The position numbers were made by a program, and so were the translations under genes. The notes beneath the pieces were generated by a model, which saw only the letters and a list, made by a program, of their open reading frames with translations, searched no databases and was not told the DNA's origin. From contig JAYOTF010000013.1 in the NCBI GenBank assembly GCA_038150265.1, positions 13,726-77,725 on the forward strand: 64,000 bases of DNA, in the 5' to 3' direction. Source of the stretch: Deltaproteobacteria bacterium (GTDB lineage Bacteria > SAR324 > NAC60-12). Of this stretch, positions 1 through 64,000 are shown in pieces (the stretch's first letter is position 1; every line of letters begins with the position of its first letter).

Positions 1-2871
1 GCTTGAGCCATCCGGACCCAGCAGGAGCTGCCCCCGTCCGGGAGCTTCCACCCCATCGATGGTGCCTTCGACATCCTGACCATTGGTCTGGGTCGCAGAA
101 GAGAGCCCCAGGGCATCAAGGTTCTTGTCTTCTCCAGGTTCGACCTCCACTGAGGAGTTCTTGCCGTAGGAGCCCGACACAAACCGCAGCCCTCCCTGGA
201 AGGCCTCGACCTGAATGCCACGCCGTCCCAGAACCTTGTCCTCATTGAGGCTCTTCTGGATCGACTTGGCCAGGCTGGAGACGGTATAGACGTCCTTGCG
301 TAGCTCAATCGGGTCCGAGGCCCGACCGTTGTTCCGGACAACGAGCACGTTGTTCGTGTCATCAATCCGGACCATGCCTCCCGGAATGGCTTCTCCCAGC
401 AGGGTGCCCTTCTTGGCCACCTGGGTGACATCGACCTTGTACCCTTCCGGGCTGATCTTGGTCTTGTCGCCCAGTCCCACAAAGGAGACTCCGGGGTTGT
501 CGGATTCGCCGTTGCTGCGGAACAGGTTGGCGACCGACACAAAATCGTTCTCAATCTTCTCACTGAGCTTCTTGTCGTCCAACGACATGGTGCCCTTGTC
601 GTTGATGCGCAACCCGATGGAGAAGAGCATGTTGGTCGCCGGAGGCAACCCCGCCACGGTGGCAATGGTCGTCGTCGCAATGTCGTTGGTGATCTGCGTG
701 AGGTTGCGATCACTCAACAGCGGCGCGGCCGTGTTCGTGGCCTTGTCAAACTTCGACAGCTCCTTGGCCGTGGCCTGATAGGTGTTGTACGCGTCCACAA
801 AATCCTGAACCCGTTCCCGGGCCTTGTCCGTGTCGCCAATCACCGAAACGGTCACCAGGTCCTTGCTTGGAGAGAGGAACTCCAGGTCCAGGCCGGGAAT
901 GATGTCGTTGGCCTTGTTCTCCGACCGGCGGACTTCGAGGCCGCCCCCCTGATCCGACGCCCCAAGGCGCAGGACCAGATCCTTTGCCTGCCGCACCGTT
1001 GAGGTGTAGGTCCGGATCTGGAAGCGATCTCCTTCGTACAGGTCTCCGGGGCCAAGCGCGACATTCAGGCCACTGTCAAAGGGAACCGGTGTCCCCGGGC
1101 GGTAGCCTTCGCCCATGTTGATGACCCCTTTGTTGCCCTGGTCATCTTCCCAGTCGACCAGCAGGGCTCGGGTGATGCCCACGCCGCCTCGACGCCGCAC
1201 CGAAAAGGTGTACGTCTTGGCCAGGTCCTGATCGAAGGAGCCGGTGACGCGGATTTCCGCGGTGCTGACGTTGCCTCCGTATTCCGGAAGCCCATCTTCC
1301 ACTTTCGGACGGTTGGCATCCCGAACTTCAGGATCCTGGTCCTCGTAAGGGCTCCACTCGGCCACCTCATCGACCTTCCCGGTCACGCCCCGAACCTCGT
1401 CAGGGAGCCACCACCAGCTTTCGGAGGTGGGAGCCTTGAGGTCGATCTCGGCGGTGTCTCCGTCTTGCAGCACACCGGGGGGAACCTCAATGAACAGCCC
1501 GTTCCCGATGGGCAGCGACGTGGGCCCTGCCTGGGCGCCGTCTTCGCCGTTGAACTTCAGGTCAAACAGCGCTTCGCCGTCTTTCGAGTCGTAAGCGGTC
1601 GCCGTTGCCGGATCACGCTGGTCCACCGACTCGGACTGATACGGGTAGCTGAGGCTCAGCTCGCCCTTTTCCCCAGTCTCCGTGAACTCGTAGTGCAGCA
1701 CCAGGGGCGTCTTGCCGCCGACCTGACCACTGCCCTGAACGCGGAAGATGACCTGCTGGTCGTCTTCGCCTTCGTACTGCCCGGTGACGTGAATGCCCCC
1801 CTTCTCCCCCTTCAGTCCCCAATCGCTGGGCGAGTAGACCTTGGAGGCGCGGTCGGCGTCACTGAGCCACCACAGCATGTCGGAGCGGGCGGCTCGGGCC
1901 TTGACCTTGAAGCTGTCGCCACTGACGATCTCACCGTCACTGAAGCGCAGCTGGATGCCATCAACCACGTCCACAGGGGTGCCTGGGGAGTAGTTGTATT
2001 CATTGATCTCAATCTGCCCCTCACGGCCCTGGCTGTCGGACCAGCCGAGGACCACGCCTTCAGGCGATGGGACCATTCCGGCTTTCAAGACCCGGAAGGT
2101 GAGCTCAATGTCTTCCTCCCCGGTGTAGTTGCCGGTGGAGTCGATGATCGGTGTGGAGGCTCCTGCGCCTCCTCGCTCAATCGGCTTGGGCGGAGCGACC
2201 TCCAGTCCTTCCCAGCTGGCCGTCTCGTCGTGCCGGTTCCGGAAGTCGGGGGCATTGTCGGCGCCCTGGAGGTTGACGGAAATGTTGATCCGTCCCTCTT
2301 CCCCCGTCCGTTTGCTGGTCAGCAGCAAGCGGTAGGGCTGATCGCCATGGGTGCGGGCAATGAAGGCCTCCACCTCGGCTTCCGACTCGTTGATGGTCCG
2401 TCGGAGGCCTTCCAGCGTGTTGTTGTCGTCGTCAATGGTCAGCGTGACTGGAGAATCCTCCTCGTTGTTGCCGACCTTGATGCTGATGGAGCCGGTGCCA
2501 ATGCGGGTGTCTTCCGAGTCAAAGCCCTGCGAAGCAATCTGGTGCGAGAGGGCGACGGAATCGACCGCAATGACGGTCTTGCCGGGCTTTGCATCCCGAC
2601 GGGCTCGGGCCACCACGACTTCCGGGTGACTGGACTCGACGCTGCGAGCCTCCCAGATGTCGGTGCTGTCAAGCGAGGTGACGACGTCCTGCAGCTTGTC
2701 GAGCTCTGCTTTGACAATGCTCCAGGATTCAATCTCCTTGAGCTTCTCATCCTTGCGTTGCTGGATGGGCTCAAGCTTCCGTTTTTCGATTTTGACGAAG
2801 CGGTCAACAATCTCCTGGGTGTTCATCTTGGAACCCAGACCGGTTACCGCATTCGGATTCAGTTCCGCCAA
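1..2871 (-). CDS. fliD: Flagellar filament cap protein FliD (HAP2), unusually large (>957 aa); 3' end lies outside the window
   Basis: Absent from the ORF track because it runs off the edge. Hand translation from TTG at 2871 gives MAELNPNAVTGLGSKMNTQEIVDRFVKIEKRKLEPIQ (FliD N-terminus), ...HQIASQGF..., YRLLLTSKRTGEEG, and ...DTDKARERVQDFVDAYN (FliD_C). The frame at position 1 matches the start. Lies directly downstream of flagellin. Confidence 0.88.
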   Translation of the reverse strand, partial: MAELNPNAVTGLGSKMNTQEIVDRFVKIEKRKLEPIQQRKDEKLKEIESWSIVKAELDKLQDVVTSLDSTDIWEARSVESSHPEVVVARARRDAKPGKTVIAVDSVALSHQIASQGFDSEDTRIGTGSISIKVGNNEEDSPVTLTIDDDNNTLEGLRRTINESEAEVEAFIARTHGDQPYRLLLTSKRTGEEGRINISVNLQGADNAPDFRNRHDETASWEGLEVAPPKPIERGGAGASTPIIDSTGNYTGEEDIELTFRVLKAGMVPSPEGVVLGWSDSQGREGQIEINEYNYSPGTPVDVVDGIQLRFSDGEIVSGDSFKVKARAARSDMLWWLSDADRASKVYSPSDWGLKGEKGGIHVTGQYEGEDDQQVIFRVQGSGQVGGKTPLVLHYEFTETGEKGELSLSYPYQSESVDQRDPATATAYDSKDGEALFDLKFNGEDGAQAGPTSLPIGNGLFIEVPPGVLQDGDTAEIDLKAPTSESWWWLPDEVRGVTGKVDEVAEWSPYEDQDPEVRDANRPKVEDGLPEYGGNVSTAEIRVTGSFDQDLAKTYTFSVRRRGGVGITRALLVDWEDDQGNKGVINMGEGYRPGTPVPFDSGLNVALGPGDLYEGDRFQIRTYTSTVRQAKDLVLRLGASDQGGGLEVRRSENKANDIIPGLDLEFLSPSKDLVTVSVIGDTDKARERVQDFVDAYNTYQATAKELSKFDKATNTAAPLLSDRNLTQITNDIATTTIATVAGLPPATNMLFSIGLRINDKGTMSLDDKKLSEKIENDFVSVANLFRSNGESDNPGVSFVGLGDKTKISPEGYKVDVTQVAKKGTLLGEAIPGGMVRIDDTNNVLVVRNNGRASDPIELRKDVYTVSSLAKSIQKSLNEDKVLGRRGIQVEAFQGGLRFVSGSYGKNSSVEVEPGEDKNLDALGLSSATQTNGQDVEGTIDGVEAPGRGQLLLGPDGSS

Positions 2872-3027
2872 GGCAGATTTCGCTTCTCAGACGTGTAAGT
2901 TTGCCGCTACCTAGGAAGAAATTGCCTTGGCAGCTTAAACGCAAACCTCTGAAATGATTGGCCATCCTCTGAATCGTCAAAAAGACGGAGAGGGGGCACT
3001 CAGAGGCTTCAAGAAGCGTTCCAGCGC

Positions 3028-4785
3028 TTAGTTGCCCACGTTCAGCAGTTGCAGGACGGAGCGAGGAACCTGGTTGGCCTGGGCCAGCATGGCGGTTCCG
3101 GAGGAGAGCAGGATCTGGTTCTTGACCAGGTGGCTCATCTCTTCGGCCATGTCGGTGTCAGCCAGCTGCGATTCGGAAGACGTCAGGTTCTCACGAGCAA
3201 CCCGCAGGTTGTTGAGGTTGGTCTCCAGAGAGTTCTTCTGGAAGGACCCCAGACGTCCCCGCAGGGAGGAAACATCGCCGATGGCCGCATCGACCACCAG
3301 CAGCGCGTCCTGAGCGAGATCCGCTCCTCGGACGTCGATGTCTGCCAGGCTGCGGAAGCCACTTCCGTTTTCGACGTTGGTGGCCAGGAATTCCGGATTG
3401 ATGCTCCGGACCGAAATCTTTCCCTGTTGGCCGTAGTTGGGGCCAATCTGGAAGTTCAGGGAGTTCTGAGTGACGTGGACGTAGCCGTCAATGGGCTCGC
3501 CGACGAGCAGGTCGTTTCCGTTCTCCTGCTTGAAGAGTCCCGCCACTCGGTTGTCAATGCGGTTGAAGACTTCGTAGATGACGTCGTCTGTGGTGTTGGA
3601 GTACCGAACCTTGACGCCTTCTGCCGGAGTTCCGGGAGCGCCGGTGAGGTACTGGCCTTCTCCGAGGGCTGGCTCGCCAACACCAGTCTCCGGGTTCCCG
3701 CCGATCGAGCCTTCCACATCCCGTCCGGGGATGGAGAAGATGGCTTCGTTGGCCGGTGTGTCTTCCTGGAAGAAGTAATCCAGGGTCGTGGAGACGGTAA
3801 AGTTGGGCGCGCTGCCGAAGTCTCGGTGGCGGATGACGATCACCTCTTCATCGCCCACCAGGTCCTTGATTTCCCCCGGGTACTCGGCGAGCTTGCGCAG
3901 CGCGTCGTCCAGGGTGTTGAAGTCGGAGATGTATTCGCCCAGTCGCTCGGAGGGGCGGTAGACCATCACTTCCACGTTCATGCCGGCGTCATCCACCTGC
4001 CGCTGCATCTCACTGACGATGAGCTGCTGAACCGCTCGCTCAGCCCGGTAGATGGCATCCGGGGAGCCGTCGCGCAGAGCGGCGCTGGCCAGCTTTTCGA
4101 TCTGGCTGTTCAGCTCCTTGTTCTTGTTGAGGTCAATGCCAACGGTGCGTTTGCCTTCGTTGATCACAAAGGACACGACCTTGTTCGGGTCGGAAGAGAC
4201 CACGTCTTCCAGGTGCAGGGCACGGGTCGCGACCAGGAAGGACCGGGTGGCGACCTGGGTGATGTCCACCTTGTAGCCTTCAGCAGGAGACGACTTGCTG
4301 ACCTCCGTGGCGCCGATGAAGTCCAGTCCGTTGCCGACGGCAACACCGGTTGCGGCATTGCTGCCGTCCAGCAGCGTTTGGGTGCCGAACTGCGTGTTCT
4401 TGGCAATGTTCCGGATGGTCGCCAGCAGGTTCTCAATTTCGATCTGGTCCGCCTCGAGCATCTTCTCATCGTTGGCCCCTTCGTTGGCCGCGTGCACCGC
4501 CAGCTGGCGGAGGTTGATGAGGATGTTGCTGACCTCGCTCAGGGCGCTTTCCGTGGTTTGAATCATGGAGATCGACGTCTCCGAGTTCTGAACGGCTTGC
4601 CCAAGCGACTCAATCTGAGACTTCATTTGCTCGGAAATCACCAGGGAGGCGGGTCCGTCGGCGGCGCGATTCAAGCGTCGTCCCGAGGAGAGCCGCTCCA
4701 GGTTGCCCGTGAGTTCTCGCTCCGTGCGGTTCAGTTGCCGCAGAGCGTTGAGGGCTGCTATGTTGGAGTTGACCCGAAGTGCCAT
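3028..4785 (-). CDS. fliC: Flagellin, 585 aa, with a large central insert
   Basis: Conserved N-terminus MALRVNSNIAALNA...LERLSSGRRLNRAADGPASLVISEQM and C-terminus RGRLGSFQKN...ADTDMAEEM...AMLAQANQVPRSVLQLL. Confidence 0.96.
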   Translation of the reverse strand: MALRVNSNIAALNALRQLNRTERELTGNLERLSSGRRLNRAADGPASLVISEQMKSQIESLGQAVQNSETSISMIQTTESALSEVSNILINLRQLAVHAANEGANDEKMLEADQIEIENLLATIRNIAKNTQFGTQTLLDGSNAATGVAVGNGLDFIGATEVSKSSPAEGYKVDITQVATRSFLVATRALHLEDVVSSDPNKVVSFVINEGKRTVGIDLNKNKELNSQIEKLASAALRDGSPDAIYRAERAVQQLIVSEMQRQVDDAGMNVEVMVYRPSERLGEYISDFNTLDDALRKLAEYPGEIKDLVGDEEVIVIRHRDFGSAPNFTVSTTLDYFFQEDTPANEAIFSIPGRDVEGSIGGNPETGVGEPALGEGQYLTGAPGTPAEGVKVRYSNTTDDVIYEVFNRIDNRVAGLFKQENGNDLLVGEPIDGYVHVTQNSLNFQIGPNYGQQGKISVRSINPEFLATNVENGSGFRSLADIDVRGADLAQDALLVVDAAIGDVSSLRGRLGSFQKNSLETNLNNLRVARENLTSSESQLADTDMAEEMSHLVKNQILLSSGTAMLAQANQVPRSVLQLLNVGN

Positions 4786-4825
4786 TGGTGGTTCCGAGAG
4801 TTGAAGTTAACTGTTCCTGAATGCC

Positions 4826-4852
4826 TTATCGGTGTCTGAGCAGAATTCTTTA
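4826..4852 (-). promoter_or_regulatory. Sigma-28 (FliA) promoter, proximal, for flagellin
   Basis: Minus strand reads TAAA-gaattctgctcagac(15 nt)-ACCGATAA; consensus is TAAA-N15-GCCGATAA. Confidence 0.8.
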
Positions 4853-4917
4853 GCGATCAGATGAATTTTTTTTTCATCCGTCGCTGTTCCGTTCTGCCGA
4901 ACCGCGACCTGTGTTCC

Positions 4918-4944
4918 TTATCGGACGCTCCGTCCAAGACTTTA
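4918..4944 (-). promoter_or_regulatory. Sigma-28 (FliA) promoter, distal, for flagellin
   Basis: Minus strand reads TAAA-gtcttggacggagcg(15 nt)-TCCGATAA. Confidence 0.75.
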
Positions 4945-4951
4945 ATAAAAA

Positions 4952-6016
<1,065 letters not shown>

Positions 6017-6108
6017 CGCTTTTTTCTTGCATTTCCCCAGCGTCCATGGATTCATGAGGGACCGCCGTCGTGGCGGGGATCCTTCAAAACCTCAGTAAGG
6101 AGTGGCTA

Positions 6109-6393
6109 ATGAAGAAACTCGCTTGTGTCTTCGTAGGTGGCTTGATGCTTGCCGGAACCGCTTGGGCCGGCTGCTCGGGGCACTCGAACCTGACCATGGC
6201 CAAGATGTCCAAAGGGCAGGAAGTCATCATGGTTGTGGAAGTCAACGGCATGCAACTGGAAGAGGTTCGTGGAACCTCGGAAGCACCCGTCTACAACGTC
6301 AAGAGCACCCTGGGACAGGTGGTGGCCAAGGAAATTTCCAAGGACCAACTCTCCACTCAGTTCCCTGAGCTTCACAAGGCCCTCGCTGGCTAA
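6109..6393 (+). CDS. Small secreted hypothetical protein
   Basis: RBS AAGGAG upstream; signal peptide MKKLACVFVGGLMLAGTAWA followed by GCSGH; followed by a palindrome. Confidence 0.7.
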   Translation: MKKLACVFVGGLMLAGTAWAGCSGHSNLTMAKMSKGQEVIMVVEVNGMQLEEVRGTSEAPVYNVKSTLGQVVAKEISKDQLSTQFPELHKALAG

Positions 6394-6401
6394 GTCCTGC
6401 C

Positions 6402-6421
6402 TGCGCCCGAATTCGGGCGCA
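6402..6421. terminator. Perfect 20-bp palindrome between convergent genes (probable bidirectional terminator)
   Basis: tgcgcccgaattcgggcgca lies between the stops at 6393 (+) and 6445 (-). Confidence 0.55.
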
Positions 6422-6444
6422 TTTGCCTTCCTGTTCCGCTTTCC

Positions 6445-6642
6445 CTAGACGAACTCTCCGTCCAACTCGGCTTCCCAGTCCGAGTCTTCCAGGTTCAGCA
6501 TGCCGCCGCCCAGATTGACCCGCCGACGGGTGTCTTCGGAGTTGGTGGAGTCCAAACGCGTGATGGTGCCTCCGCGCTGAAGGAATTCAGCCACGGCCTG
6601 GTCCAATTCGTTTCGGGTGATTTCGGGTTCGCGCTGTTGCAT
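6445..6642 (-). CDS. Small acidic protein with a SutA-like RNA-polymerase-binding motif
   Basis: MQQREPEITRNELDQAVAEFLQRGGTITRL...; the EFLxRGG[KT]I motif resembles the SutA core; acidic tail LEDSDWEAELDGEFV. Confidence 0.6.
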   Translation of the reverse strand: MQQREPEITRNELDQAVAEFLQRGGTITRLDSTNSEDTRRRVNLGGGMLNLEDSDWEAELDGEFV

Positions 6643-6762
6643 GCGAGCAAACTGAGGAGAGGGAAGTGGTTTCACGAGAAGACCTTGAATGAGGAAAACC
6701 AAAAATTATCGGATGACTTGATGGAGGTGTCAACCTAAATTCAAGGGCTCTCGTGAAAATTC

Positions 6763-7818
6763 TCAGGACCGGTCCAGGGGGTGCCGGAAGTGAGCAGGCG
6801 GGAATTCCTCCAGTCCGGAGATGTTGGGGTACTCCTTCTCGACCCACTCAAGGGGGTAGCCGTGCTTGAGGCGTCCCACTTCATCCAGGCGTTCCCAGTG
6901 TTCCTGAGGCAGGTTCCACTCGGCGACAGCCAGGGAGTCCTGCACATGCTCCACCGTCCGGGGGCCAATGATCACGGAGCTGATGCGCTTGTCGCCAAAG
7001 AGCCACGCCAGCGCCACCTGTCCGGGGGTCTTCCCCACGGCCTCGGCGACCTCCTTGAGGGCCTCGACGATGTCAAACGCCTGGTCGCTGTAGTAGCGGG
7101 GAATGTCCACGTTCTTGCGGAACGAGATGCGCGAGCCTTCCGGGGGCTCGGCGTTGCGTTCGTACTTGCCACTGAGGAAGCCACTGGCGAGCGGGCTCCA
7201 GCAGAGCATCCCCAGCCCCTGATCGGCACAGGCGGGAAGGATCTCGCGCTCAATGTCCCGGCGCACCAGGTTGTACAGGTGCTGGGCGCTGATGAGGCGA
7301 GCCCAGCCGTAGCGCTCAGAAAGGGCGTTGGCCTTGACGATCTGCCAGCCGTAGTAGTTGCTGCACCCGATGTAGCGCACCTTCCCGGCGCGGACGAGGT
7401 CGTCGAGCGCCCGCATGGTTTCTTCCATCGGGGTGAACCAGTCCGGACCATGAATCTGGTAGAGGTCCACGTAGTCCGTGCCCAGCCGCTGCAAGCTGGC
7501 GTCCAGGGCTTCCACAAGGTGCTTGCGGGAAACGCCCTTGGCGTTGGCGCCGGAACCCATCCGAAACCACCCCTTGGTGGCCACCACCAGATCGTCTCGT
7601 TTGTGGTGCGCGATCGCCTTCCCCAGCATGGTCTCAGACATCCCGGCGCTGTACATGTCCGCTGTGTCCAGAAAGTTCCCTCCGGCTTCCACAAACTTGT
7701 CCACAATCTGAGTCGCGGCGTCCTGGTCGCATCCCCAGTTCTTCATCCCAAAGGTCATGGTGCCCAAGCAGATCCGCGAAACCAGGAGTCCTGAGCGTCC
7801 TAAGTACCGATAGTGCAT
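6763..7818 (-). CDS. Aldo/keto reductase
   Basis: YRYLGRSGLLVSRICLGTMTFG, DTADMY, SLQRLGTDYVDLYQIH, GKVRYIGCSN, WSPLASGFLSGKY. Confidence 0.94.
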   Translation of the reverse strand: MHYRYLGRSGLLVSRICLGTMTFGMKNWGCDQDAATQIVDKFVEAGGNFLDTADMYSAGMSETMLGKAIAHHKRDDLVVATKGWFRMGSGANAKGVSRKHLVEALDASLQRLGTDYVDLYQIHGPDWFTPMEETMRALDDLVRAGKVRYIGCSNYYGWQIVKANALSERYGWARLISAQHLYNLVRRDIEREILPACADQGLGMLCWSPLASGFLSGKYERNAEPPEGSRISFRKNVDIPRYYSDQAFDIVEALKEVAEAVGKTPGQVALAWLFGDKRISSVIIGPRTVEHVQDSLAVAEWNLPQEHWERLDEVGRLKHGYPLEWVEKEYPNISGLEEFPPAHFRHPLDRS

Positions 7819-8041
7819 GTGTGGCCTTCTCTTCCATCGTTAAAGGGTGATTCAGCAACGGTGCTGGAGTGAGTGTTTGCGTAGCATGACCGAGAGTGCA
7901 CCGGAGGTCAATCTTTCATTTGGGCCCGGAATTTTGGGAAAAACGGTTTTTCCACAATCCACCGGAGCTGGGCACTTGATCTTTTCCTGAAAAGGATCCA
8001 GATTTCCTCAAATCGGAAAGACCCCCTGATGGTGAAGCCTC

Positions 8042-9571
8042 ATGTCTCCAACACCGACCGCTGCTCCAGCCTCCACAAATGACTTCATTGGCGCCGAGAT
8101 CTCCAGGCTCGGGAAGAGCAAACCCTCGCTGAAGGCGCTCTTTTCGCTGGTGGAATTTTCGGGCACGCCGGTCATGATCACCCGCCTGAGTGACGGAGAG
8201 GTGCTGTATGCGAATACGGCCATGGAGGAGCTGGCGCAGACGACGCGGACGGAGCTGATTGGGCGCATGGCCCCCAGCCTGTACCAGCGGGAAGAAGACC
8301 GCGCCCCCCTTGTGGAAAAGCTCTATGCGGAAGGACGGGTCCGGAACTACCGAATTGATGTGCGAGGGGTCCAGGGGCGGGAGTTCACGGTGCTGTGCAA
8401 CGCGGAAATAGTGGACTACCTTGGCGAGCAGGCCATCCTCAACACGTACCTGGACGTGACGGAGGTCCAGCGTGAGCTGCTCCGCCAGCAGCAGTTTCAC
8501 CTCCTGACGGCGTCGTTTTTGGGCGTTGGGTACGGAACCTACCACCTCGAAACGGGGACCATGACGGTGGATGCCAGCGTTCAGGAACTGCTGGAGCTGG
8601 GGCCCGAGGAGTCGTTTTCGCTGCCGTGCTTCCTGAAGCGCATTCCGGAGGCAAACCGGGAGTTTGTGACCCAGCGGGTGGAGCAGGCCTTTGAGCAGCT
8701 CAAGTCTGGAACGCGTACCCAGGAGGAGTACCTCCTGCACCTGCCCAGCGGTCAACAGCGCATTGTCCGCATCAGCTCCCTGCCCTTCCAGGATTCCGAA
8801 AAATGGGTGGTGCACTTCTTCCAGGACATCACGGAGCGGGAGCTGCTGCGTCGCAAGTCTCGGCAGCAGGAGCGGCTTTCCTCACTGGGGCAGCTCACCG
8901 CTGAAATCGTTCACGACCTGCGCTCTCCGCTGGCTTCCATTGCGCTCAACACCGAGGCCCTGTACCGTCTGGCCCGTCAGGCCTCGCCGGCCAAGGCCCA
9001 GTGGCTTTATGAAAACTCGATGCAGTCCGTCCAGCGGGCATCAGACCTGATGAACCGGACCCTGGAGCAGACACGCCAGGGCGAGGTCAAGGTGGCGGTG
9101 AAGTTGAGTCAGGAAGTGAAGCGGGTCCTGGAGTCCCTCCAGACCTTTTTGCTGAAGCGCCGGATTTCAGTCAGCACTCAGCTGGTGGGCATGACAGAAG
9201 AGACGGAGCCGGAACTGGAGGTCAACCCGTTGTTGCTACAGCAGTGTCTGCAGAACCTCATCACGAACGCGGTGCAGGCGACGGTCCCCGTCATCAACAC
9301 GGGAATTCCTCCGGCGCAGGTGCCCATTGAGCTGCTCCTGAGTCCGCACAAGGGGTTCATGAAGCTGGAGGTTCTGGATTGCGGAGTGGGCATTCCAAAG
9401 GCGGATTTGCCTCACATCTTTGATGAGTTCTTCACCACTCAAGAAGGCGGAAACGGCATTGGCCTGGCGCTGTCTCGGAGGATTGCTGAAGAACACGGTG
9501 GGCACCTCGATGCGCTCAATCGCAGCGACCGCACCGGCGCCCGGTTGGTCCTGCAGCTTCCTCTCGCCTAG
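8042..9571 (+). CDS. PAS-domain sensor histidine kinase (soluble, orphan)
   Basis: PAS-like N-terminus (PVMITRLSDGEVLYAN), H-box EIVHDLRSPL, N-box QNLITNAVQA, G1 DCGVGI, F-box IFDEFFTT, G2 GNGIGL. Confidence 0.9.
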   Translation: MSPTPTAAPASTNDFIGAEISRLGKSKPSLKALFSLVEFSGTPVMITRLSDGEVLYANTAMEELAQTTRTELIGRMAPSLYQREEDRAPLVEKLYAEGRVRNYRIDVRGVQGREFTVLCNAEIVDYLGEQAILNTYLDVTEVQRELLRQQQFHLLTASFLGVGYGTYHLETGTMTVDASVQELLELGPEESFSLPCFLKRIPEANREFVTQRVEQAFEQLKSGTRTQEEYLLHLPSGQQRIVRISSLPFQDSEKWVVHFFQDITERELLRRKSRQQERLSSLGQLTAEIVHDLRSPLASIALNTEALYRLARQASPAKAQWLYENSMQSVQRASDLMNRTLEQTRQGEVKVAVKLSQEVKRVLESLQTFLLKRRISVSTQLVGMTEETEPELEVNPLLLQQCLQNLITNAVQATVPVINTGIPPAQVPIELLLSPHKGFMKLEVLDCGVGIPKADLPHIFDEFFTTQEGGNGIGLALSRRIAEEHGGHLDALNRSDRTGARLVLQLPLA

Positions 9572-9605
9572 ACGCTCCGGCCCCCTGCCCCTGGACCCGG
9601 AAGCC

Positions 9606-10457
9606 CTAACCTTCAGCGACAAAACGCTGAAAGGCTTCGGCATAGTCCGGATGCCAGCGAGAAAGCGGAGGCCGGTTTTCGATCAGATCCCCCATTGCCC
9701 ACGCCATCCGCTTTTCATCCAATTCCCGAGTCACGTCATTGTCCGGACAGAGGATGTAGAAGTCCCCGGCTTCCAGGCGTGCCATGAGGAAGTCTGCCGT
9801 TTGTTCCGGAGTCCAGGCGCCCGCCGGTTTTTCGGTGCGGCCGTTTCGCGTGAGGTCGGTGAAGACAAACCCGGGAATGAGCAGGTGCGCCGTCAGCTGG
9901 TGCCGGGCGGTGTTGCGGAGTTCATGAGCAAGGGCCTCGGTGAAGGTCTTCACTCCGCTCTTGCTGACGTTGTAGGCGGGGTCTCCGGGAGGAGTCGTGA
10001 TGCCTTGCTTGGAGCCCGTATTGATGATGAGGCCCGGGCGTGCCCGCTCAATCATGCGGGGCAGGAAGACCTGAGTGCCATGGACCACGCCGCCCAGGTT
10101 GACTCCAAGGATGCGGAGCCAGTTTTCCGGATCTTCGAGGAGGGTGCTGCCAGGCTGGGTCCCGGCGTTGTTCATGAGGACATCGGTGCCTCCCCAGCGG
10201 TCGGCGATTTCGACTTCCAGATCAATCAAGGCGTGCCGGTTGGAAACGTCCACCGTCCGGGTCAGCACTTCTGAGGCGCCTGCTTGCCGGACCTGTTCGG
10301 CGGCGTTTTCCAGCTGCGGCGCCCGGAGGTCCACCAGCACGATCTTCATGCCAAAGGCCGCGAATTTCCGGGCGGCAGCGAGTCCAATTCCAGCGGCGCC
10401 TCCGGTGACAACAGCAACGGAATGCTCCGTAAAGGCGGGGTGCGTCATGAGTTCCAT
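9606..10457 (-). CDS. Short-chain dehydrogenase/reductase
   Basis: VVTGGAAGIG, MNNAG, catalytic YNVSK. Confidence 0.93.
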   Translation of the reverse strand: MELMTHPAFTEHSVAVVTGGAAGIGLAAARKFAAFGMKIVLVDLRAPQLENAAEQVRQAGASEVLTRTVDVSNRHALIDLEVEIADRWGGTDVLMNNAGTQPGSTLLEDPENWLRILGVNLGGVVHGTQVFLPRMIERARPGLIINTGSKQGITTPPGDPAYNVSKSGVKTFTEALAHELRNTARHQLTAHLLIPGFVFTDLTRNGRTEKPAGAWTPEQTADFLMARLEAGDFYILCPDNDVTRELDEKRMAWAMGDLIENRPPLSRWHPDYAEAFQRFVAEG

Positions 10458-54243: not shown

Positions 54244-54270
54244 ACCCTTTCTCTTTCTCTGAGCCTCTCT

Positions 54271-55665: not shown

Positions 55666-55682
55666 TCGGCTCCCCTCCTCCC

Positions 55683-55703
55683 AGGCTCCCTCAAGGGGAG
55701 CCT
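55683..55703 (+). terminator. Hairpin after the aldehyde dehydrogenase
   Basis: aggctccct-caa-ggggagcct. Confidence 0.45.
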
Positions 55704-55717
55704 CCTGTAAAAAATTC

Positions 55718-55745
55718 TTGCAATCCTCACTTTTCTTGTTATTTT
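55718..55745 (+). promoter_or_regulatory. Candidate sigma-70 promoter with extended -10
   Basis: TTGCAA-16 nt-TATTTT with TGn immediately before the -10; AT-rich upstream element. Confidence 0.5.
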
Positions 55746-55751
55746 TGTGGA

Positions 55752-56035
55752 TTACCTACCGGCCTGATCCGGTAGGCGCAAGTCAGGCCCTCAGCACCCT
55801 GTTCTGGCTTAGCGTAGACGTCAGCACCCCCAGCATCGTCTTATGCCGGGAGTTGAAGGATTCGATTCATGCCAAATCCCCTTCGGGTTCTGACGGAACT
55901 TCATCAGTGATTGTTATGGGTAGTACAAACGACGAGAGGCGATGCCGAACGGAAGCGCGTGTCCGCGTTCCGGGTCGGAAGTCCGCAGCCTAGGCCGTCC
56001 TGTACTTCATAACGGGACTCGGCCTCGCTGAGCTT
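55752..56035 (+). ncRNA. Candidate structured non-coding RNA or leader upstream of speD-speE (family not recognised)
   Basis: Nested complementary segments and a 5' pseudoknot (see findings); starts right after the promoter; no credible CDS in this ~630-nt intergenic gap. Confidence 0.55.
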
Positions 56036-56297
56036 CCCTCCCCCCTTCCGTTCCTCGCACTCCGCATCCCTCTCGAAAACGGGCATTCCCGTGTTGGTTG
56101 GCTCCACGCAGGCAGCAATGGCTCCTGACGCTGAAGCCACGGTTTGGTTCGTTGACCCCTTCGAGTCCGCCTCATCCGCCTGAAATCGGTCTCCGTGTTG
56201 CCCCTGTGGTCCGGAAGCCTCGGGCCGCTCCGGTTGCGCCACAACGCCGCTGACGGGGCAGAGGCATGCGATCATCTTTTAGCAATGAGGAACCCCC

Positions 56298-56777
56298 ATG
56301 GCCTTGAACATCATTTATCGCGGAAAGAACAACCCGGCTCCCACCTTCCTGAAGGCACCGATTGACCTGGAAGATGAGTTGAACCGCAAGGACCACTTCA
56401 TCGTGAAAGACGGGGTCACCTGCGCGGGCACCCACGTCATCATTGACCTCTGGGATGCCACCGAGCTGGACAGCCTCGAGGCCATGGAAGCAGCCATGCG
56501 GGAGGCCGTTGAGGTCTGTGGCGCCACCCTGCTGCACATCCACCTGCACCACTTCACTCCAAACGGAGGCGTCTCTGGCGTGGCAGTGCTTGCCGAGTCG
56601 CACATCAGCGTGCATTCGTGGCCTGAGCGCGGTTTTGCCGCATTTGACGTGTTCATGTGTGGAGACGCCAAGCCTGAGCTGGCGGTGGATGTCTTCCGGA
56701 AGCACTTCAACCCACGCCGTGTGGAAGTTCACCAGCACCTCCGGGGCACTGTCGGGAGCAGCAATGGAACGGTTTGA
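56298..56777 (+). CDS. speD: S-adenosylmethionine decarboxylase proenzyme
   Basis: GTHVIIDLW, GGVSGVAVLAESHISVHSWPE (Glu-Ser self-cleavage site), DVFMCG. Confidence 0.96.
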   Translation: MALNIIYRGKNNPAPTFLKAPIDLEDELNRKDHFIVKDGVTCAGTHVIIDLWDATELDSLEAMEAAMREAVEVCGATLLHIHLHHFTPNGGVSGVAVLAESHISVHSWPERGFAAFDVFMCGDAKPELAVDVFRKHFNPRRVEVHQHLRGTVGSSNGTV

Positions 56778-57612
56778 AGAGCAGCTTTATCCGGAGTGGG
56801 CGCAGACGTTCAAGATCGATGAGGTGCTGTTTGAGCACCGGACCGAGCACCAGCACCTGATCATTTTCAAGAATGCCCAATTCGGACGCGTGATGGCGCT
56901 TGATGGCATCATCCAGACCACCGAGGCGGACGAGTTCGTTTATCATGAAATGCTGGCGCATGTGCCGCTCTTTGCCCATGGCGAAGCCAAGCGGGTGCTG
57001 ATCATTGGAGGGGGAGACGGAGGGTTGCTCCGGGAGGTGCTCCGGCATCCGGAAGTGGAGCATGTCACGCAGGTGGAAATTGACGGGCAGGTGATCGAGA
57101 TGGCGAAGGAGTTGCTGCCGAATCACTCGCAGGGCGCCTTTGACGACCCTCGGGTCCGCATCGTCATCCAGGACGGCATTGAGTACGTGAAGACCTGCAC
57201 CGAGGCGTTTGACGTGATCCTCAGTGACTCCACCGACCCGATGGGGCCAGGCGAGGTGCTCTTCACGTCTCCGTTTTACACCGGGTGCCAGCGTTTGCTC
57301 GGAGAGCAGGGCATTTTGGCCACCCAAAATGGGGTGCCTTACCTGCAGCTGGAAGAAGTCCGGGTGACGCACCAGCGCCTGAAGCCACTGTTTGCAGACG
57401 CCTTCTTTTATGGCGCATCGGTGCCGACCTATGTGGGAGGAATCATGACCTTTGGGTGGGCCACGCAGAATCCGGAGCTGCGGCAGCAACCGGCGTCCGT
57501 GCTGCGGGAACGCTTTGAGCAAGCGGGGTTCCGGACTCGCTTCTACACTCCGGAGCTGCACCACGGCAGCTTTGCGCTGCCTCAGTACGTCCTCGACAGC
57601 TTCCTGGGCTGA
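56764..57612 (+). CDS. speE: Spermidine synthase (polyamine aminopropyltransferase)
   Basis: ALDGIIQTTEADEFVYHEMLAH, LIIGGGDGG, VEID, DSTDP. Confidence 0.96.
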   Translation: MERFEEQLYPEWAQTFKIDEVLFEHRTEHQHLIIFKNAQFGRVMALDGIIQTTEADEFVYHEMLAHVPLFAHGEAKRVLIIGGGDGGLLREVLRHPEVEHVTQVEIDGQVIEMAKELLPNHSQGAFDDPRVRIVIQDGIEYVKTCTEAFDVILSDSTDPMGPGEVLFTSPFYTGCQRLLGEQGILATQNGVPYLQLEEVRVTHQRLKPLFADAFFYGASVPTYVGGIMTFGWATQNPELRQQPASVLRERFEQAGFRTRFYTPELHHGSFALPQYVLDSFLG

Positions 57613-57705
57613 TGCCTGAGCCTCTTCGGAGGCTCGCCTTCCTCCTCACTCCGTCACACAACTCACTCCGGACCCTGGGCTTCTGTGGGGTTCAGGCGTG
57701 AAGGC

Positions 57706-58380
57706 TCACTCCGGCGCCAGCCGCTGTTCCAGCCAGGCGACCAGGCGGGTCACCAGAAAATTCAGGACCAGGTAAAGGGCCCCGGCGACAATGAAGATCT
57801 CGATGGGGGCGTACGTCTTGGCGATGATGGACCGGGCAACCCCGGTCATTTCCATGAGGGTGATGGTGCTGGCAAGCGAGCTGGCCTTGACCATGAGGAT
57901 CATTTCGTTGCCGTAAGCCGGCAAGGCGATGCGAGTGGCCTGAGGCAAGAGGACCCGCCGGAAGCGCTGCAGCGGACTCATCCCAAACGCGAGGGCCGCT
58001 TCAATCTGCCCGTGTGGGACCCCCTGAAGGGCCCCTCGGAAGATCTCGCTCGCATAGGCGCCGGTGTTGAGCGTCAGCGCCAGCACGGCACACCAGTACG
58101 GCTCCCGTAGCAAGATCCAGAGCCAGCTTTCCCGGATCCATTCGACCTGCCCAAGTCCGAAGTAAATCAGAAAGATCTGCACCAGCAGCGGGGTCCCCCG
58201 GAAGACAAACACGTAGCTCTTGACGAGCTGAGTTGCCAGGGAACCGCCGTACACCCGCAGCAGGGCCAGCGCCAGCGCGAGGAAGAAGCCCAGCAGGAGC
58301 GACATCCCAACCAGCTGCAGGGTTTCTCCCAGTCCGCCCAGAATCTTGGGGAGGCTGGAGCTCATGAGGTCCCAGTTCAT
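57706..58380 (-). CDS. Polar amino acid ABC transporter permease (HisM-like)
   Basis: FRGTPLLVQIF, AYASEIFRG, GQIEAA. Confidence 0.92.
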   Translation of the reverse strand: MNWDLMSSSLPKILGGLGETLQLVGMSLLLGFFLALALALLRVYGGSLATQLVKSYVFVFRGTPLLVQIFLIYFGLGQVEWIRESWLWILLREPYWCAVLALTLNTGAYASEIFRGALQGVPHGQIEAALAFGMSPLQRFRRVLLPQATRIALPAYGNEMILMVKASSLASTITLMEMTGVARSIIAKTYAPIEIFIVAGALYLVLNFLVTRLVAWLEQRLAPE

Positions 58381-59078
58381 GTGCGTGATGCTCCACGGTT
58401 GGCCCAGCGTTCGGCGCGGACAAAGCCACGTTCACTGAGGGAGGTCAGAACGAGGAACAGCACGGCAGCGGTGCTGTAAAAGAGAAACGGGCTGCGTTCG
58501 GATCCGGAAGCGACATAGGCCTGCCGCATCAGCTCCACCAGTCCGGTGACTGAGATGAGGGCCGTATCCTTGAGGGTGAGCTGCCAGACGTTTCCCATGC
58601 CAGGCAGGGCCAGCCGGGCCGTCTGCGGAACCAGCACCCGGGAAAACAGCGTCATGCGTGGCATGCCGATGGCGTGCGCGGCTTCCAGCTGTCCCTTTGA
58701 AACCGCCTGCACCGCGCCTCGGATGACCTCGGTGGAGTAGGCGCCGCTGATCAGTCCGACCGCAACCACGCCAATGGCAAAGGCGGGAACTTCAATGTAG
58801 CCCTCATGTCCGAAGATGCTGGCAACGAACATGACCGCTCCATTGCCTCCGAAGAAGAGGAGGTAGATGATGAGCAACTCCGGAACCCCTCGGATGAGGG
58901 TGGTGTAGCCATTGGCCAACCAGCGCAGCACCCGGGGACCTGAGAGCTTGACCCACGCCAGCAGGGTGCCAATGACGGTGCCCAGCAGCAGCGAGCAGAC
59001 TGAAACCGCCAGCGTCATGAGCATGGCGAGGAGCATTTCGTCTCCCCAGCCGTTGGGGCCAAAGGCGAGTTTTTCCAT
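58377..59078 (-). CDS. Polar amino acid ABC transporter permease (HisQ-like)
   Basis: RGVPELL, AYSTEVIRG, GQLEAA, LKDTAL. Confidence 0.92.
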   Translation of the reverse strand: MEKLAFGPNGWGDEMLLAMLMTLAVSVCSLLLGTVIGTLLAWVKLSGPRVLRWLANGYTTLIRGVPELLIIYLLFFGGNGAVMFVASIFGHEGYIEVPAFAIGVVAVGLISGAYSTEVIRGAVQAVSKGQLEAAHAIGMPRMTLFSRVLVPQTARLALPGMGNVWQLTLKDTALISVTGLVELMRQAYVASGSERSPFLFYSTAAVLFLVLTSLSERGFVRAERWANRGASRT

Positions 59079-59133
59079 GAAGGCGCACGTCAGGTGAGGT
59101 GGGGGCGGGATGCCGAAGCACCCCGCAGAGGGC

Positions 59134-59979
59134 TTACATGGAGATGTCTTTGCCGAACCACTGGTTCGAGATGCGGCTCAGGGTTCCGTCGGCCCGGACG
59201 GAGTCAATGGCCTTGTTGAACAGACCCAGCAGGTCGGTGTCGCTCTTGCGCAGACCAATGCCCACGCCAGCGCCAAAGACGTCTCCGCTCATGCGCGGTC
59301 CAGCGAAGGTGAGGGACTGACCGGAGTCGGACTCCAGGAATTCCTCAAAGGCGCCCGTGTCGGCGAGGGCGGCGTCAATCCGTCCAGAAGCCATGTCGAG
59401 GTTGAGGTCGTCCTGCGTCTGGTAGGTCCGCATGGTGGAGCCGGTGAGGTACTTCTCCACAAAATTGGCGTGGATGGTCGCCGACTGCACCCCGATGGTT
59501 TTGCCGTCAAGGACTTCCACAAGTCGATCAATGGCGGCTTTCTCGTTGGCGCTCATGCGGTCGAGGTTGATCTTCTCCGGGAAGCTGGAGCTGTCGAGGT
59601 CACTGCCCTTGGCGGTGATGAAGGACGCGCCATCGGTCATGTAGCCCTGGCTGAAGTTGATCACTTCCTGACGCTCCGGTGTGATCGACATGCCCGCGAT
59701 GATGGCGTCGTACTTGCCTTGCTGCAGCGCCGGGATGATGCCATCCCAGTCCTGGGCGACAAAGGTGCACTCGACCTGCATGCGCTTGCAGAGCTCGCGG
59801 CCCAGGTCGATCTCGGCGCCGACCAGGTTGCCATTGGCATCGGTGGCGTTCCACGGCGGGTAGGCGCCTTCGGTGCCGATCCGAACCGTTTTCCATTCCT
59901 TGGCCTGGGCGGTGAGGACCATCCCCAGCGCCAGGGCCAGAGACAGCCACAGGGTTTTCTTGAACATCATGCTCTCCAT
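59134..59979 (-). CDS. Basic amino acid (Lys/Arg/Orn/opine) ABC substrate-binding protein
   Basis: Signal peptide; IGTEGAYPPWN, WDGIIPAL, GMSITPER, GVQSATIH. Confidence 0.9.
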   Translation of the reverse strand: MESMMFKKTLWLSLALALGMVLTAQAKEWKTVRIGTEGAYPPWNATDANGNLVGAEIDLGRELCKRMQVECTFVAQDWDGIIPALQQGKYDAIIAGMSITPERQEVINFSQGYMTDGASFITAKGSDLDSSSFPEKINLDRMSANEKAAIDRLVEVLDGKTIGVQSATIHANFVEKYLTGSTMRTYQTQDDLNLDMASGRIDAALADTGAFEEFLESDSGQSLTFAGPRMSGDVFGAGVGIGLRKSDTDLLGLFNKAIDSVRADGTLSRISNQWFGKDISM

Positions 59980-59984
59980 TGCAA

Positions 59985-60764
59985 TTAGAAGTGAGTGACG
60001 CTGGCCAGAAACTGGCGGCAGCGTTCCGTGGTTGGGGCTTCAAAAACCGAAGCCGGAGGGCCCCATTCCCCCACGACTCCTTGGTCCAAAAAGAGGACAT
60101 TGCTGCTGACATCGCGGGCAAAGCGCATTTCATGAGTGACCACGAGCATGGTCCGGCCTTCTTCCGCGAGCGCTCGCATGACCTTGAGCACCTCGCCCAC
60201 GAGTTCGGGGTCAAGGGCGCTGGTGGGCTCATCGAAGAGCAGCACCTCCGGCTCCATGGCCAGGGCCCGGGCGATGCCGACGCGTTGCTGCTGTCCTCCG
60301 GAAAGCTGAATCGGCCAGGCTGCGGCACGGTCCGCTAGCCCAACCTTTTCCAGGTAGTGAAGGGCGCGGTCCCGGGCTTCGGCCTTCGGCACCTTGAGCA
60401 CGTGGATGGGGCCTTCAGTGACGTTGTCGAGGACATTGAGGTGCGTCCAGAGGTTGAAGGACTGGAAGACCATCCCGCACCGCTGCCGCAGCTTCACAAT
60501 GTCGCGCCGGGGGGCTCCCGCCTGAAAGACCTGTCCGGAGAGTGCGATGGTGCCCCGGTCGGGTTCTTCAAGAAAGTTGATGCAGCGCAGGAACGTGCTC
60601 TTCCCGGACCCGGAAGACCCGATGATGGAGACGACGTCTCCTTCGTGGGCGTCGAGAGAGATGCCCTTGAGCACTTCCACTCCTCCAAACGACTTGTGGA
60701 GGTCGGTCACGCGCAGGCGGCTTTCAGAGGCATTCGCCGAGGCAGTGGAGGAGGGATTCGACAC
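59985..60764 (-). CDS. Polar amino acid ABC transporter ATPase (HisP-like)
   Basis: GSSGSGKST, LSGGQQQR, FDEPTSALDPE, VTHEM. Confidence 0.94.
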   Translation of the reverse strand: MSNPSSTASANASESRLRVTDLHKSFGGVEVLKGISLDAHEGDVVSIIGSSGSGKSTFLRCINFLEEPDRGTIALSGQVFQAGAPRRDIVKLRQRCGMVFQSFNLWTHLNVLDNVTEGPIHVLKVPKAEARDRALHYLEKVGLADRAAAWPIQLSGGQQQRVGIARALAMEPEVLLFDEPTSALDPELVGEVLKVMRALAEEGRTMLVVTHEMRFARDVSSNVLFLDQGVVGEWGPPASVFEAPTTERCRQFLASVTHF

Positions 60765-60894
60765 AGTGGTATTGGTAAGATGAGATCCGTTGGGTTCTTC
60801 ATTAAAACCTCATATTAAATGGAGAACCTGCTACTTTGTAAAGGTCAAAGCTACATTTTTCGCCGTTTCTGTTGATTTCTCCCCAAGGAGCCGG

Positions 60895-62025
60895 ATGCCT
60901 CGTGAAACCTTCTTGCCATTGACCCTGACGGCCCCTGGAACGCAGCGCGCGCTGCGGGTGCTGGATTTTGGTCCTGCTGACGCCACGCCGCTGATCTACC
61001 TCCAGGCCTCAATTCATGCTGATGAAATTCCGGCGCTCGCAACCGCGCATCGGCTGGAGCAGAGGCTCACGCAACTGGAAGCCGAGGGCGCGTTTCGTGG
61101 ACGGGTCCGGCTGGTTCCCGTGGCGAACCCGGTGGGGCTGGACCAGCACCTGATGGGGCAGCACCTGGGGCGCTTCGAGTTTTCCAGCCGCGACAACTTC
61201 AACCGGGGCTATCCGGAGTTGGGGGACGTGCTTCCGGAGCGGCTGAAGGGGGTGCTGACGGACGATCCCGACCAGAACGTCCGGGTGATCCGGGAGGCGA
61301 TCCGGGCCGTGCTGGCAGAGCGCCCGCCTGTGAGCGCTCCGGAGGAGCACAAGCGTCTGCTCTTTGAGCAGGCTCTGGACGCCGACCTGATTGTGGACCT
61401 GCACTGCGACGATGAAGCCGAGCTGCACCTGTACACCAGCCCCTCCGGGTGGGACGCTTTTGAAAGCCTCGCTCGCCTGTTGCACATTCCGGTGGTGATG
61501 CTGGCTGACGATTCCGGAGGAGCCAGCTTTGACGAGGCCCTGCCGGGGCTGTGGACCGCTCTGCAGCAGGCTCTTCCGGAGGCGCCTCTTCCCTCGGCCA
61601 CCCGAGGCTGTACGGTGGAGCTGCGTGGCATGGAAGACGTCCGGCTGGACCTGATTGAGCAGGATACCGAGGCGATTTTGGCCTTTCTGCAGCGTCAGCA
61701 GGTGCTGGAGGGGGCCGAGGTGCCCCTCCCGGAGCCGGTTCCGCATGTGGTTCCGCTGGAGGCGGTGGACTTCCCGGCTGCACCGGTGGCCGGGATTGTG
61801 CTGTGGCACAAGCAACTGGGGGAGGAGGTCACTGAAGGAGAGCCGCTTGCGGAAATCTGGGTGCCGGGACAGGCCAGCCAGCCTCCGATTTCAGTCCGGG
61901 CCCGCTGTTCCGGACGCCTGTTTGTGCGCACTCGCCAGCGCTTTGTTGAGGCGGGCGCCAGCCTGGGGAAAATCTGCAGCGCGGCCCCGTTGCCGTGGCG
62001 GAAGGGCTACCTGCTCAACGCCTGA
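60895..62025 (+). CDS. Succinylglutamate desuccinylase/aspartoacylase (M14) family protein
   Basis: QASIHADE, ANPVG, NFNR, DLHCD, TVELRG. Confidence 0.88.
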   Translation: MPRETFLPLTLTAPGTQRALRVLDFGPADATPLIYLQASIHADEIPALATAHRLEQRLTQLEAEGAFRGRVRLVPVANPVGLDQHLMGQHLGRFEFSSRDNFNRGYPELGDVLPERLKGVLTDDPDQNVRVIREAIRAVLAERPPVSAPEEHKRLLFEQALDADLIVDLHCDDEAELHLYTSPSGWDAFESLARLLHIPVVMLADDSGGASFDEALPGLWTALQQALPEAPLPSATRGCTVELRGMEDVRLDLIEQDTEAILAFLQRQQVLEGAEVPLPEPVPHVVPLEAVDFPAAPVAGIVLWHKQLGEEVTEGEPLAEIWVPGQASQPPISVRARCSGRLFVRTRQRFVEAGASLGKICSAAPLPWRKGYLLNA

Positions 62026-62157
62026 GCCGCGCCTTGATTTTGACTCTTTGGGGGACTTTGCTAAGTTGGCGAGGCGTTGCTGCCGCAGCAAGGCCCACTC
62101 ACCCCGGAGGCCCGTGCCGGGATTCTTTCCGAATTCTTCACTTACTACAGGAACGCT

Positions 62158-63849
<1,692 letters not shown>

Positions 63850-63904: not shown

Positions 63905-63980
63905 GGGTCGGTAGCTCAGTTGGTAGAGCATCTGACTTTTAATCAGGTGGTCCGGGGTTCGAGCCCCCGCCGACCCACCA
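63905..63980 (+). tRNA. tRNA-Lys (anticodon TTT)
   Basis: 76 nt; acceptor stem gggtcgg/ccgaccc, D-arm gctcagttggtagagc, anticodon loop cttttaa, T-loop gttcgag, encoded CCA. Confidence 0.97.
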
Positions 63981-64000
63981 ACGGAATCAGTGAGTTAGGC

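Follow-up and report, generated by a model that had tools for sequence, protein, structure and literature searches.

Throughout a 64,000-nucleotide stretch of DNA from a Deltaproteobacteria bacterium (SAR324; NAC60-12; assembly GCA_038150265.1, contig JAYOTF010000013.1, positions 13,726 to 77,725; hereafter the window), and throughout the rest of its genome, the palindromic hexamer TCCGGA is present in large excess, with neighboring copies avoiding one another at short range and keeping a preferred face of the DNA helix at longer range. The word behaves like the highly iterated palindromes (HIPs) of cyanobacteria, differs from them in showing no association with a cognate methyltransferase, and adds a helical phasing which takes either sign. 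From these sequence patterns, we give about an even chance to TCCGGA being the binding site of an abundant protein that would bend DNA or bridge neighboring sites. In what follows the source genome is G000 (3.39 Mb on 87 contigs, 61% GC, 97.8% complete), its relatives in the SAR324 class are numbered from G001, and g and f denote genera and families.

A total of 9,711 copies of TCCGGA are present in G000 (2.86/kb, approximately one per 350 bases). The window contains 166 exact copies (11..62172, the first at 11-16 and the last at 62167-62172; no strand is assigned to these or to the pairs described below), which lie in genes in all frames and in intergenic DNA at 4-17 per 4-kb bin. This amounts to 2.59/kb, compared with 21.2 copies (0.33/kb) expected from base composition. 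The original prediction, made from the window by hand counting, had proposed a lineage-specific HIP-type motif, and its figures held on recounting: all seven example positions (11, 333, 366, 1011, 1283, 3392 and 3405) are exact copies, 31 copies are found in the first 14.3 kb (about 30 claimed) and 12 in 28.0-30.7 kb (about 11 claimed), the expectation of about 0.3/kb agrees with that computed, and ACCGGT is indeed far rarer, with 15 copies in the window. Observed/expected ratios (O/E) at Markov orders 0-4 are 7.8, 6.8, 3.9, 2.2 and 1.18 in the window and 8.7, 7.6, 3.95, 2.4 and 1.22 in G000. In the latter TCCGGA ranks first of the 4096 hexamers at each order; in the window alone its rank falls to fifth at order 4. 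The ratio at this order is low because the pentamers TCCGG and CCGGA themselves consist largely of TCCGGA. Densities of 1.2-3.8/kb on 70/70 G000 contigs longer than 8 kb indicate that this is a genome-wide feature and no property specific to the window. The bases flanking the word show merely a weak preference, and the word is therefore the hexamer.

The excess is real, independent of reading frame, and no coding artifact. A self-trained model called 2,986 genes in G000, 2,769 of which (at least 300 bases in length, no N) were used. Upon shuffling synonymous codons within genes, 2,116 copies are expected and 8,939 are observed (4.2-fold overall; 4.1x, 3.2x and 5.2x in frames 0, 1 and 2), and 2.65x, 1.97x and 1.97x remain in the same frames when the shuffle is made stricter by conditioning on the amino acid that follows. 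The non-coding DNA of G000 carries 1.88 copies/kb where 0.30 is expected (about sixfold). The frame independence and the codon-shuffled null that had been named as checks of the original prediction therefore come out in its favor, with an excess in all three frames and between genes. When all 2-, 3- and 4-mers were fitted at 545,750 fourfold sites, TCCGGA was the top residual (1.42x, z=69).

The copies are spread over the kilobase scale much as in a Poisson process (variance/mean 0.96-1.15, coefficient of variation of gaps 0.98; dispersion was measured up to 5 kb). Pairs 11-29 bp apart are halved genome-wide (279 vs 556), and beyond 30 bp the number of pairs rises and falls every 10.4-10.5 bp, with maxima at whole turns. 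For instance, where 83 pairs are expected, lags of 41-43 and 61-63 bp hold 129 and 145, and lags of 46-48 and 67-69 bp hold 52 and 72. The period is 10.50 bp, with an amplitude of 0.24 at lags of 30-130 bp and 0.12 at 130-300 bp; z in successive bands to 303 bp is 8.3, 4.9, 3.8 and 3.1, and there is no phasing beyond. In ten control hexamer sets no peak came near this one (the ratio to the median being 2.5 or less, versus 7.1 and 5.0 for TCCGGA), and the A/T tracts of G000 reach an amplitude of only 0.01-0.05 at a period of about 10.9 bp. TCCGGA is first among the 639 hexamers having at least 300 pairs, with a statistic of 52.7 compared to 5.9 for the best non-overlapping word and a median of 0.68; in this ranking no other word is phased with TCCGGA. 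In 200 permutations, each of which kept the protein sequence and the eligible positions, the amplitude was 0.023 ± 0.014 (maximum 0.065) against 0.148 observed, and the number of pairs 11-29 bp apart was 461 ± 18 against 254 observed. The phasing survives removal of repeat-like pairs (39/28,338), and is seen between sites in different frames, between sites on either side of a gene border (n=596, z=2.1) and where intergenic sites are involved (n=664, z=2.6). Protein-helix periodicity, repeats and phasing with A-tracts were accordingly rejected as its source by the permutation and word controls. Hairpin avoidance was also rejected, six other palindromes and ten inverted word pairs being without a comparable short-range dip (lowest 44 vs 59); among these controls CAGCTG alone reached z=2.3. 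A set point of density was rejected as well, the gaps being exponential and the density varying from 0.6 to 2.9/kb among enriched genomes.

That neighboring sites set each other's phase is revealed by comparison of G000 with its congener G002, in 681 aligned genes of which those sites present in one genome only were termed private. Shared-private pairs are phased (0.20; n=767, z=4.0), as are private-private pairs within one genome (0.30; n=446, z=4.5). Pairs made of one site private to G000 and one private to G002 show no phase (-0.01; n=396) in spite of the common gene scaffold. Since cross-genome pairs are unphased and same-genome pairs are phased, it is the neighboring sites that determine the phase, and this phase is still being written in these genomes. 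An eligible position is occupied with a frequency of 0.48 if it has an in-phase neighbor, 0.37 if the neighbor is out of phase, and 0.23 if it lies within 30 bp.

Turnover was estimated in the same 681 genes (231,997 codons), together with one equally distant locus, using a 16-state model with two free positions. TCCGGA sites are gained 2-4 times faster and lost 2-4 times more slowly than background: gain is multiplied by 3.8, 3.3 and 2.2 and loss by 0.48, 0.28 and 0.41 in frames 0, 1 and 2, the bootstrap ranges excluding 1 in every case. Gain-only and loss-only fits are worse than the free fit in each frame, and a one-parameter, selection-like fit (scaled strength 1.7-2.5) equals the free fit in frames 1 and 2. 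The two genomes share 470 of 1378 sites (Jaccard 0.34), which is second among 24 listed palindromes of the same GC content (CCATGG, 0.39); with 34% of the sites common to both, individual copies are therefore replaceable. In strain variants, 4 of 40 listed differences toggle a site (1,045 further differences lie beyond the list), from which no inference was drawn. It is highly improbable that TCCGGA is a by-product, devoid of function, of context-dependent mutation and of codon or codon-pair usage. The fall of O/E to 1.2 at Markov order 4, the moderate excess in distant relatives and a gain-only fit nearly as good as the selection-like one in frame 0 would be congruent with such an origin; the residual left by the 2-4-mer fit at fourfold sites and the slowed loss in three frames would not, and local context cannot couple sites 40-300 bp apart, as the control with sites private to different genomes attests.

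TCCGGA density was determined in 72 genomes of the class, 41 of which made up an earlier, smaller set. It is 2.2-2.9/kb in g1, the genus of G000 (3/3 genomes), 1.4-2.3/kb in g12 (3/3), 0.6-2.1/kb in g11 (12/12), 0.7-1.1/kb in g4 (3/3), and 0.1-0.25/kb in g2 (6/6). With GC taken from samples of 4-24 kb, O/E is about 7.5-9 in the measured g1 and g11 genomes, 4.4-7.5 in g12, 3-4 in g4, and 2.3-2.7 in g3, g6 and g10; g2, g5, g9 and the four measured f2 genomes stand at about 1. The motif is thus specific to a lineage, as had been proposed from the window. Within the high-density group GC content spans 39-61%, which bears upon the idea, put forward also for HIP1, that the word serves as a DNA-uptake or recombination signal favoring self DNA and has built up through molecular drive. 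The uptake sequences known are 9-12 bp long and non-palindromic, and a word common to genera of such different composition would make a poor marker of self. The even spread over the genome and the selection-like turnover do fit drive, and the available part of PMC13756078 proposes a link between HIP1 and uptake. Drive alone, however, predicts neither the exclusion at 11-29 bp nor a helical phase of two signs, and we regard this explanation as quite improbable.

The sign of the phase was determined from whole-genome pairs at lags of 36-38 bp (3.5 turns) and 41-43 bp (4 turns). Whole turns are preferred in G000 (64/129), G002 (44/67), G018 (14/79), G022 (3/19) and G005 (10/36); the preference is reversed, to half turns, in the g12 genomes G013 (75/10), G023 (58/7) and G019 (26/0) and in G001 of g1 (63/22). 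By genus, whole turns characterize g1 (2/3 genomes), g11 and g4, and half turns g12. The same signs are found at lags of 94-96 versus 99-101 bp (G000 116/73, G018 43/19; reversed group pooled 135/204, p=2e-4), on which grounds we rejected a period of 9.5 bp for g12 that 420 kb of G013 had suggested. The same 420 kb confirmed the anti-phase (-0.29, z=-3.2). Related genomes are not independent, and at most one or two switches of phase are represented here.

It is conceivable that no protein is involved, and that TCCGGA itself bends or kinks DNA, selection on the curvature or flexibility of the chromosome then setting both the number and the phase of the sites. The helical repeat of relaxed B-DNA is 10.4-10.5 bp, which is the period observed, and only TCCGGA is phased with TCCGGA, the sites setting each other's phase. 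Curvature should nonetheless favor spacings of one or two turns, yet lags of 11-29 bp are depleted about twofold; moreover, the sign reverses between sister genera that use the same word, and f7 genomes carry the word without phasing. This explanation therefore appears to us improbable.

Proteins that act at two sites loop DNA in a manner dependent on helical phase. Exclusion at short range, a helical phase that decays with distance, and the dependence of each site on the other's presence are the trace expected of a symmetric protein that bends or bridges DNA, provided that one geometry was favored by selection or by repair under the influence of the complex, and for this reason we favor a protein as the agent. 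The chromosome-organization option of the original prediction is the one that the phasing supports. A symmetric, presumably dimeric, protein would read the palindrome; two bound proteins would clash when nearer than about three turns, giving the exclusion below about 30 bp; and over longer distances the DNA would couple them, through looping or the summing of their bends, such that a new site would be favored only if it fell on one helical face. Such sites would be fixed by weak selection (about 2 scaled units per site), or else by repair that the bound protein biases, and a changed geometry of the protein could have flipped the favored face in g12, this being the simplest way to reverse the sign with the same word. 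Only tentatively, and with less than even confidence, do we go further and propose that an architectural protein of a new family builds the nucleoid of a SAR324 clade, docking every 350-800 bp on a palindrome independent of methylation, and that a change in it switched a whole-turn to a half-turn code in one lineage.

The original prediction had also suggested the target of an orphan methyltransferase coupled to repair, for which we obtained no support. Neither PF00145 (C5 methyltransferase) nor Vsr was found in G000; PF00145 is without a match in G000, G001, G013, G018, G019, G022 and G023, and PF01555 in G018 and G022. The C5 enzymes were rejected as writers, PF00145 being present in 14/41 genomes without tracking enrichment. 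A six-frame motif scan of G000 revealed just two DNA-type amino-methyltransferases, neither of the Dam type. No C5 or N4/N6-family gene is common to the enriched genomes, a negative limited by the fact that the other families were motif-scanned in G000 only, and that the relatives were not queried for the D12, Eco57I, MT-A70 or phosphorothioate families.

One of these two genes, on contig C45, encodes a beta-type N4/N6 methyltransferase that overlaps a reverse transcriptase of retron type (St85-like; its 200 bits fall short of the 235 cut-off). It was rejected as writer, since it stands beside a retron-like reverse transcriptase and has a close match only in G001 among the matches listed. A gene of 311 amino acids (aa) with no Pfam or NCBIfam match then follows, and the locus (L001:35-3159) may be one of defense.

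The other, on contig C51 (L002:2-1387; orthologues L003-L022, L210, L211 and L291-L319), is an alpha-type N4/N6 methyltransferase-like gene found order-wide, with matches in 36/41 relatives whether enriched or not; its product has a long, basic tail at the N-terminus. Its catalytic motif (SPPY in G000) is intact in 9/9 aligned non-enriched orthologues and in G000, G001, G002 and G012, and has decayed to CPPY, NPPY or RPPY in g12, to RPPL or RPPF in g4, and to APPA and NPPM in g3 and g6. The S-adenosylmethionine-binding motif is invariant and the ratio of nonsynonymous to synonymous substitution rates (dN/dS) is approximately 0.05, from which the family would appear to be a conserved pseudo-enzyme in g12, g4 and the g3/g6 branch. 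The predicted model (predicted local distance difference test score, pLDDT, 94) has a class I methyltransferase fold with a helical insert; its best structural matches, among many, are Trm11 (Z 16.1, root mean square deviation 2.5, 176 aligned) and Dam. In G018 and G050 the gene has been cleanly deleted from its syntenic position, and neither genome gives a profile match; on that account it was dropped as a candidate pseudo-enzyme reader. G018 has 1.5 TCCGGA/kb and the strongest in-phase signal, so that the gene is dispensable both as writer and as reader, unless its loss was recent.

A modification of TCCGGA, in base or backbone, by an enzyme outside the searched families, with repair directed by the modification ratcheting the sites in (Elhai's model for HIP1) and a two-site complex producing the phase, would be the leading rival, if an unlikely one. 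Biased repair would likewise raise gain and lower loss, MutL is present, and the C51 gene retains SPPY in G000; the near-multiplicative enrichment of the half-site (T before CCGG) resembles the two-step ratchet described in the available part of PMC4390886. Weighing on the other side are the missing PF00145 in seven genomes, PF01555 in G018 and G022, and Vsr in G000, the presence of the C51 gene in non-enriched genomes together with its decay in g12 and g4 and its deletion in G018 and G050, and exponential gaps with densities of 0.6-2.9/kb among enriched genomes, which leave no set point of density.

Candidate readers of other kinds fared no better. A ChiS-like DNA-binding family was rejected, having 16 copies in G000, 16 in the non-enriched G010 and none found in the enriched G022; its members have a common C-terminal domain with no curated Pfam match and occur in 21/41 relatives, all of family f1. 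A 75-aa ribbon-helix-helix-like protein (3/72 genomes, g1 only, by single-sequence query) and a 102-aa winged-helix protein (6/72 genomes, four of these in non-enriched g2) were rejected too. There was no histone (PF00808) match at E 0.01 in G000 and none over cut-off in the enriched genomes among the 41, although divergent bacterial histones could escape the model. Tandem histone-fold matches on contigs C7 and C488 of G006 (L212-L226), a bin of 12 Mb, are possibly eukaryotic contamination. SeqA (PF03925) had no match at E 0.01 in G000, the E. coli control being positive, and a motif of CCGG-family nucleases was not found in G000 by a crude test. G000 possesses three ordinary HU/IHF genes and an AbrB/MazE-like protein of 107 aa. 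No cluster of TCCGGA lies near dnaA, nor were DnaA boxes found there, so that the origin was not located.

Several observations weigh against a dedicated DNA-binding protein. Seven reader or writer candidates or families have failed, and no protein was identified. Copies do not cluster (400 bp hold 7 at the most), which together with the near-Poisson spread at the kilobase scale makes no location-specific role visible; nor is one revealed by the occupancy of eligible positions, which stays at 44-50% in all deciles when codon bias is taken as a proxy for expression (a bias that is weak in G000). Within the window by itself, phasing reaches only marginal strength (n=49, z=2.2) and no short-range dip is seen (10 vs 7.9 pairs). 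Phasing is not significant in G012 (20/29), G015 (7/11) and G021 (10/10), nor in G004, G011 and G030, which have too few pairs, and 420 kb of G001 give but a weak anti-phase (-0.07, z=-0.8). With regard to turnover, the free fit in frame 0 is better than the selection-like fit by 6.5 log units and than the gain-only fit by 5.9, and the rates are rough because divergence between G000 and G002 is high (48% of fourfold sites differ). Finally, part of the excess reflects a broader TCCGG bias, because the half-sites CCCGGA/TCCGGG are also about twofold enriched in G000 and the copies in five f7 genomes (0.5-0.7/kb) are unphased (41/40 pairs at lags 36-38/41-43).

To our knowledge, HIP1 has for three decades been without a function or a binding protein. 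The cyanobacterial words are HIP1 itself (GCGATCGC) and the alternates GGCGCC, rCCGGy and GCsGC (PMC4390886, PMC5861425). As described in the available parts of these papers, HIPs resemble TCCGGA in being short palindromes that occur more than once per gene, in every frame and in intergenic DNA, in being lineage-specific, in being more conserved than most controls, and in having no known binding protein. They differ in word and phylum, and in that a methyltransferase acting on the word, or on its core, generally accompanies them; here none is common to the enriched genomes. In the available text of PMC5861425, HIP1 is given a period of 18-94 kb, with no mention of one at the helical scale, unlike the 10.5-bp period, the exclusion and the two phases of TCCGGA; the order-2 O/E of TCCGGA (3.95) is below the O/E of over 16 that defines "HIP1-rich" octamers there, word lengths being different. 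From the accessible part of PMC2691817, SeqA of E. coli shows a preference for the same DNA face, requires hemimethylated GATC and binds close pairs, whereas close pairs of TCCGGA are avoided. The Dam/SeqA system differs further in that G000 is without a SeqA match, a Dam-type enzyme by motif scan, or a cluster near dnaA, and the very-short-patch repair of Dcm/Vsr in that G000 has neither a C5 methyltransferase nor a Vsr match. Restriction-modification systems of the Kpn2I/AccIII/BspEI type target TCCGGA, and restriction usually depletes its target; type II systems thus differ, TCCGGA being enriched here with no cognate methyltransferase common to the enriched genomes. The A-tract periodicity of prokaryotes, about 11 bp in bacteria, is alike as a helical-scale period taken as a sign of nucleoid structure, and different in that here one GC-rich word has a period of 10.5 bp and 5-25 times the amplitude of the A/T-tract signal, and is not phased with A-tracts. 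Full-text searches, with subscription journals, REBASE and bioRxiv supplements lying outside them, brought up among the papers listed no study of over-represented TCCGGA, of palindromes or methylomes in SAR324, or of helical phasing in HIPs. The available part of PMC4390886 makes no mention of TCCGGA, and "SAR324" was not among the first hits of term searches in the text and supplements of the marine methylome papers PMC8919816 and PMC9516812, where genomes may be labeled otherwise.

The spacing may be illustrated within the window, bearing in mind that the pattern is statistical and that a single pair proves nothing. Pairs at four turns are found at 29316..29363 (42 bp apart) and 48009..48055 (41 bp), one at five turns at 41555..41612 (52 bp), and one at six turns at 9742..9810 (63 bp, a lag overrepresented in the genome as a whole). 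Four copies at 38832, 38925, 38947 and 39019 (38832..39024) are spaced by 93, 22, 72, 94 and 115 bp, and five copies at 40294..40602 by 51, 94, 115 and 43 bp in succession, all near whole turns.

The window otherwise consists of ordinary housekeeping and metabolic DNA, including a MutY-type glycosylase gene (4952-6016, +), an Alternative complex III-type operon (16715-25190, +) and an EVE-domain gene (46012-46473, +). A dihydroxy-acid dehydratase gene (62230-63849, +) has zero TCCGGA in 1.6 kb, where 4-5 copies would be expected; apart from four close relatives, most of the matches listed for it come from Methylococcales and Verrucomicrobia, at about 70%. CTAG (O/E 0.05) and TTAA (0.20) are strongly depleted across G000. 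Six f7 genomes (G067, G069-G073) are nearly without TCCGGA (15-267 copies, vs 1,435-1,882 of AGGCCT), and their sister genera g32-g34 have a moderate, unphased excess. Over 21.6 kb, a Methylococcaceae locus (L032) carries 20 TCCGGA and 12 ACCGGT, about 4x and 2.5x the numbers expected, which may point to a WCCGGW bias in another lineage. The viral loci L371, L350, L370, L341 and L342 have 2-3.4 TCCGGA/kb at 38-44% GC after removal of the three selecting copies; these come from 80 of at least 124 loci which were picked by the motif itself, and no inference was drawn.

TCCGGA is a HIP-like word outside the cyanobacteria: it occurs in an abundant lineage of aquatic bacteria, apparently has no methyltransferase, and bears a physical signature in its spacing. 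Across a whole bacterial chromosome, mutual constraint links synonymous positions that lie 40-300 bp from one another. The opposite phases turn a vague idea of chromosome structure into a testable preference for sites 42 bp or 37 bp apart. If the proposal of an architectural protein is true, the chromosome of these bacteria would contain a pairwise, phase-dependent code, that is, a genome-wide epistasis between synonymous sites which may be read from the sequence alone.

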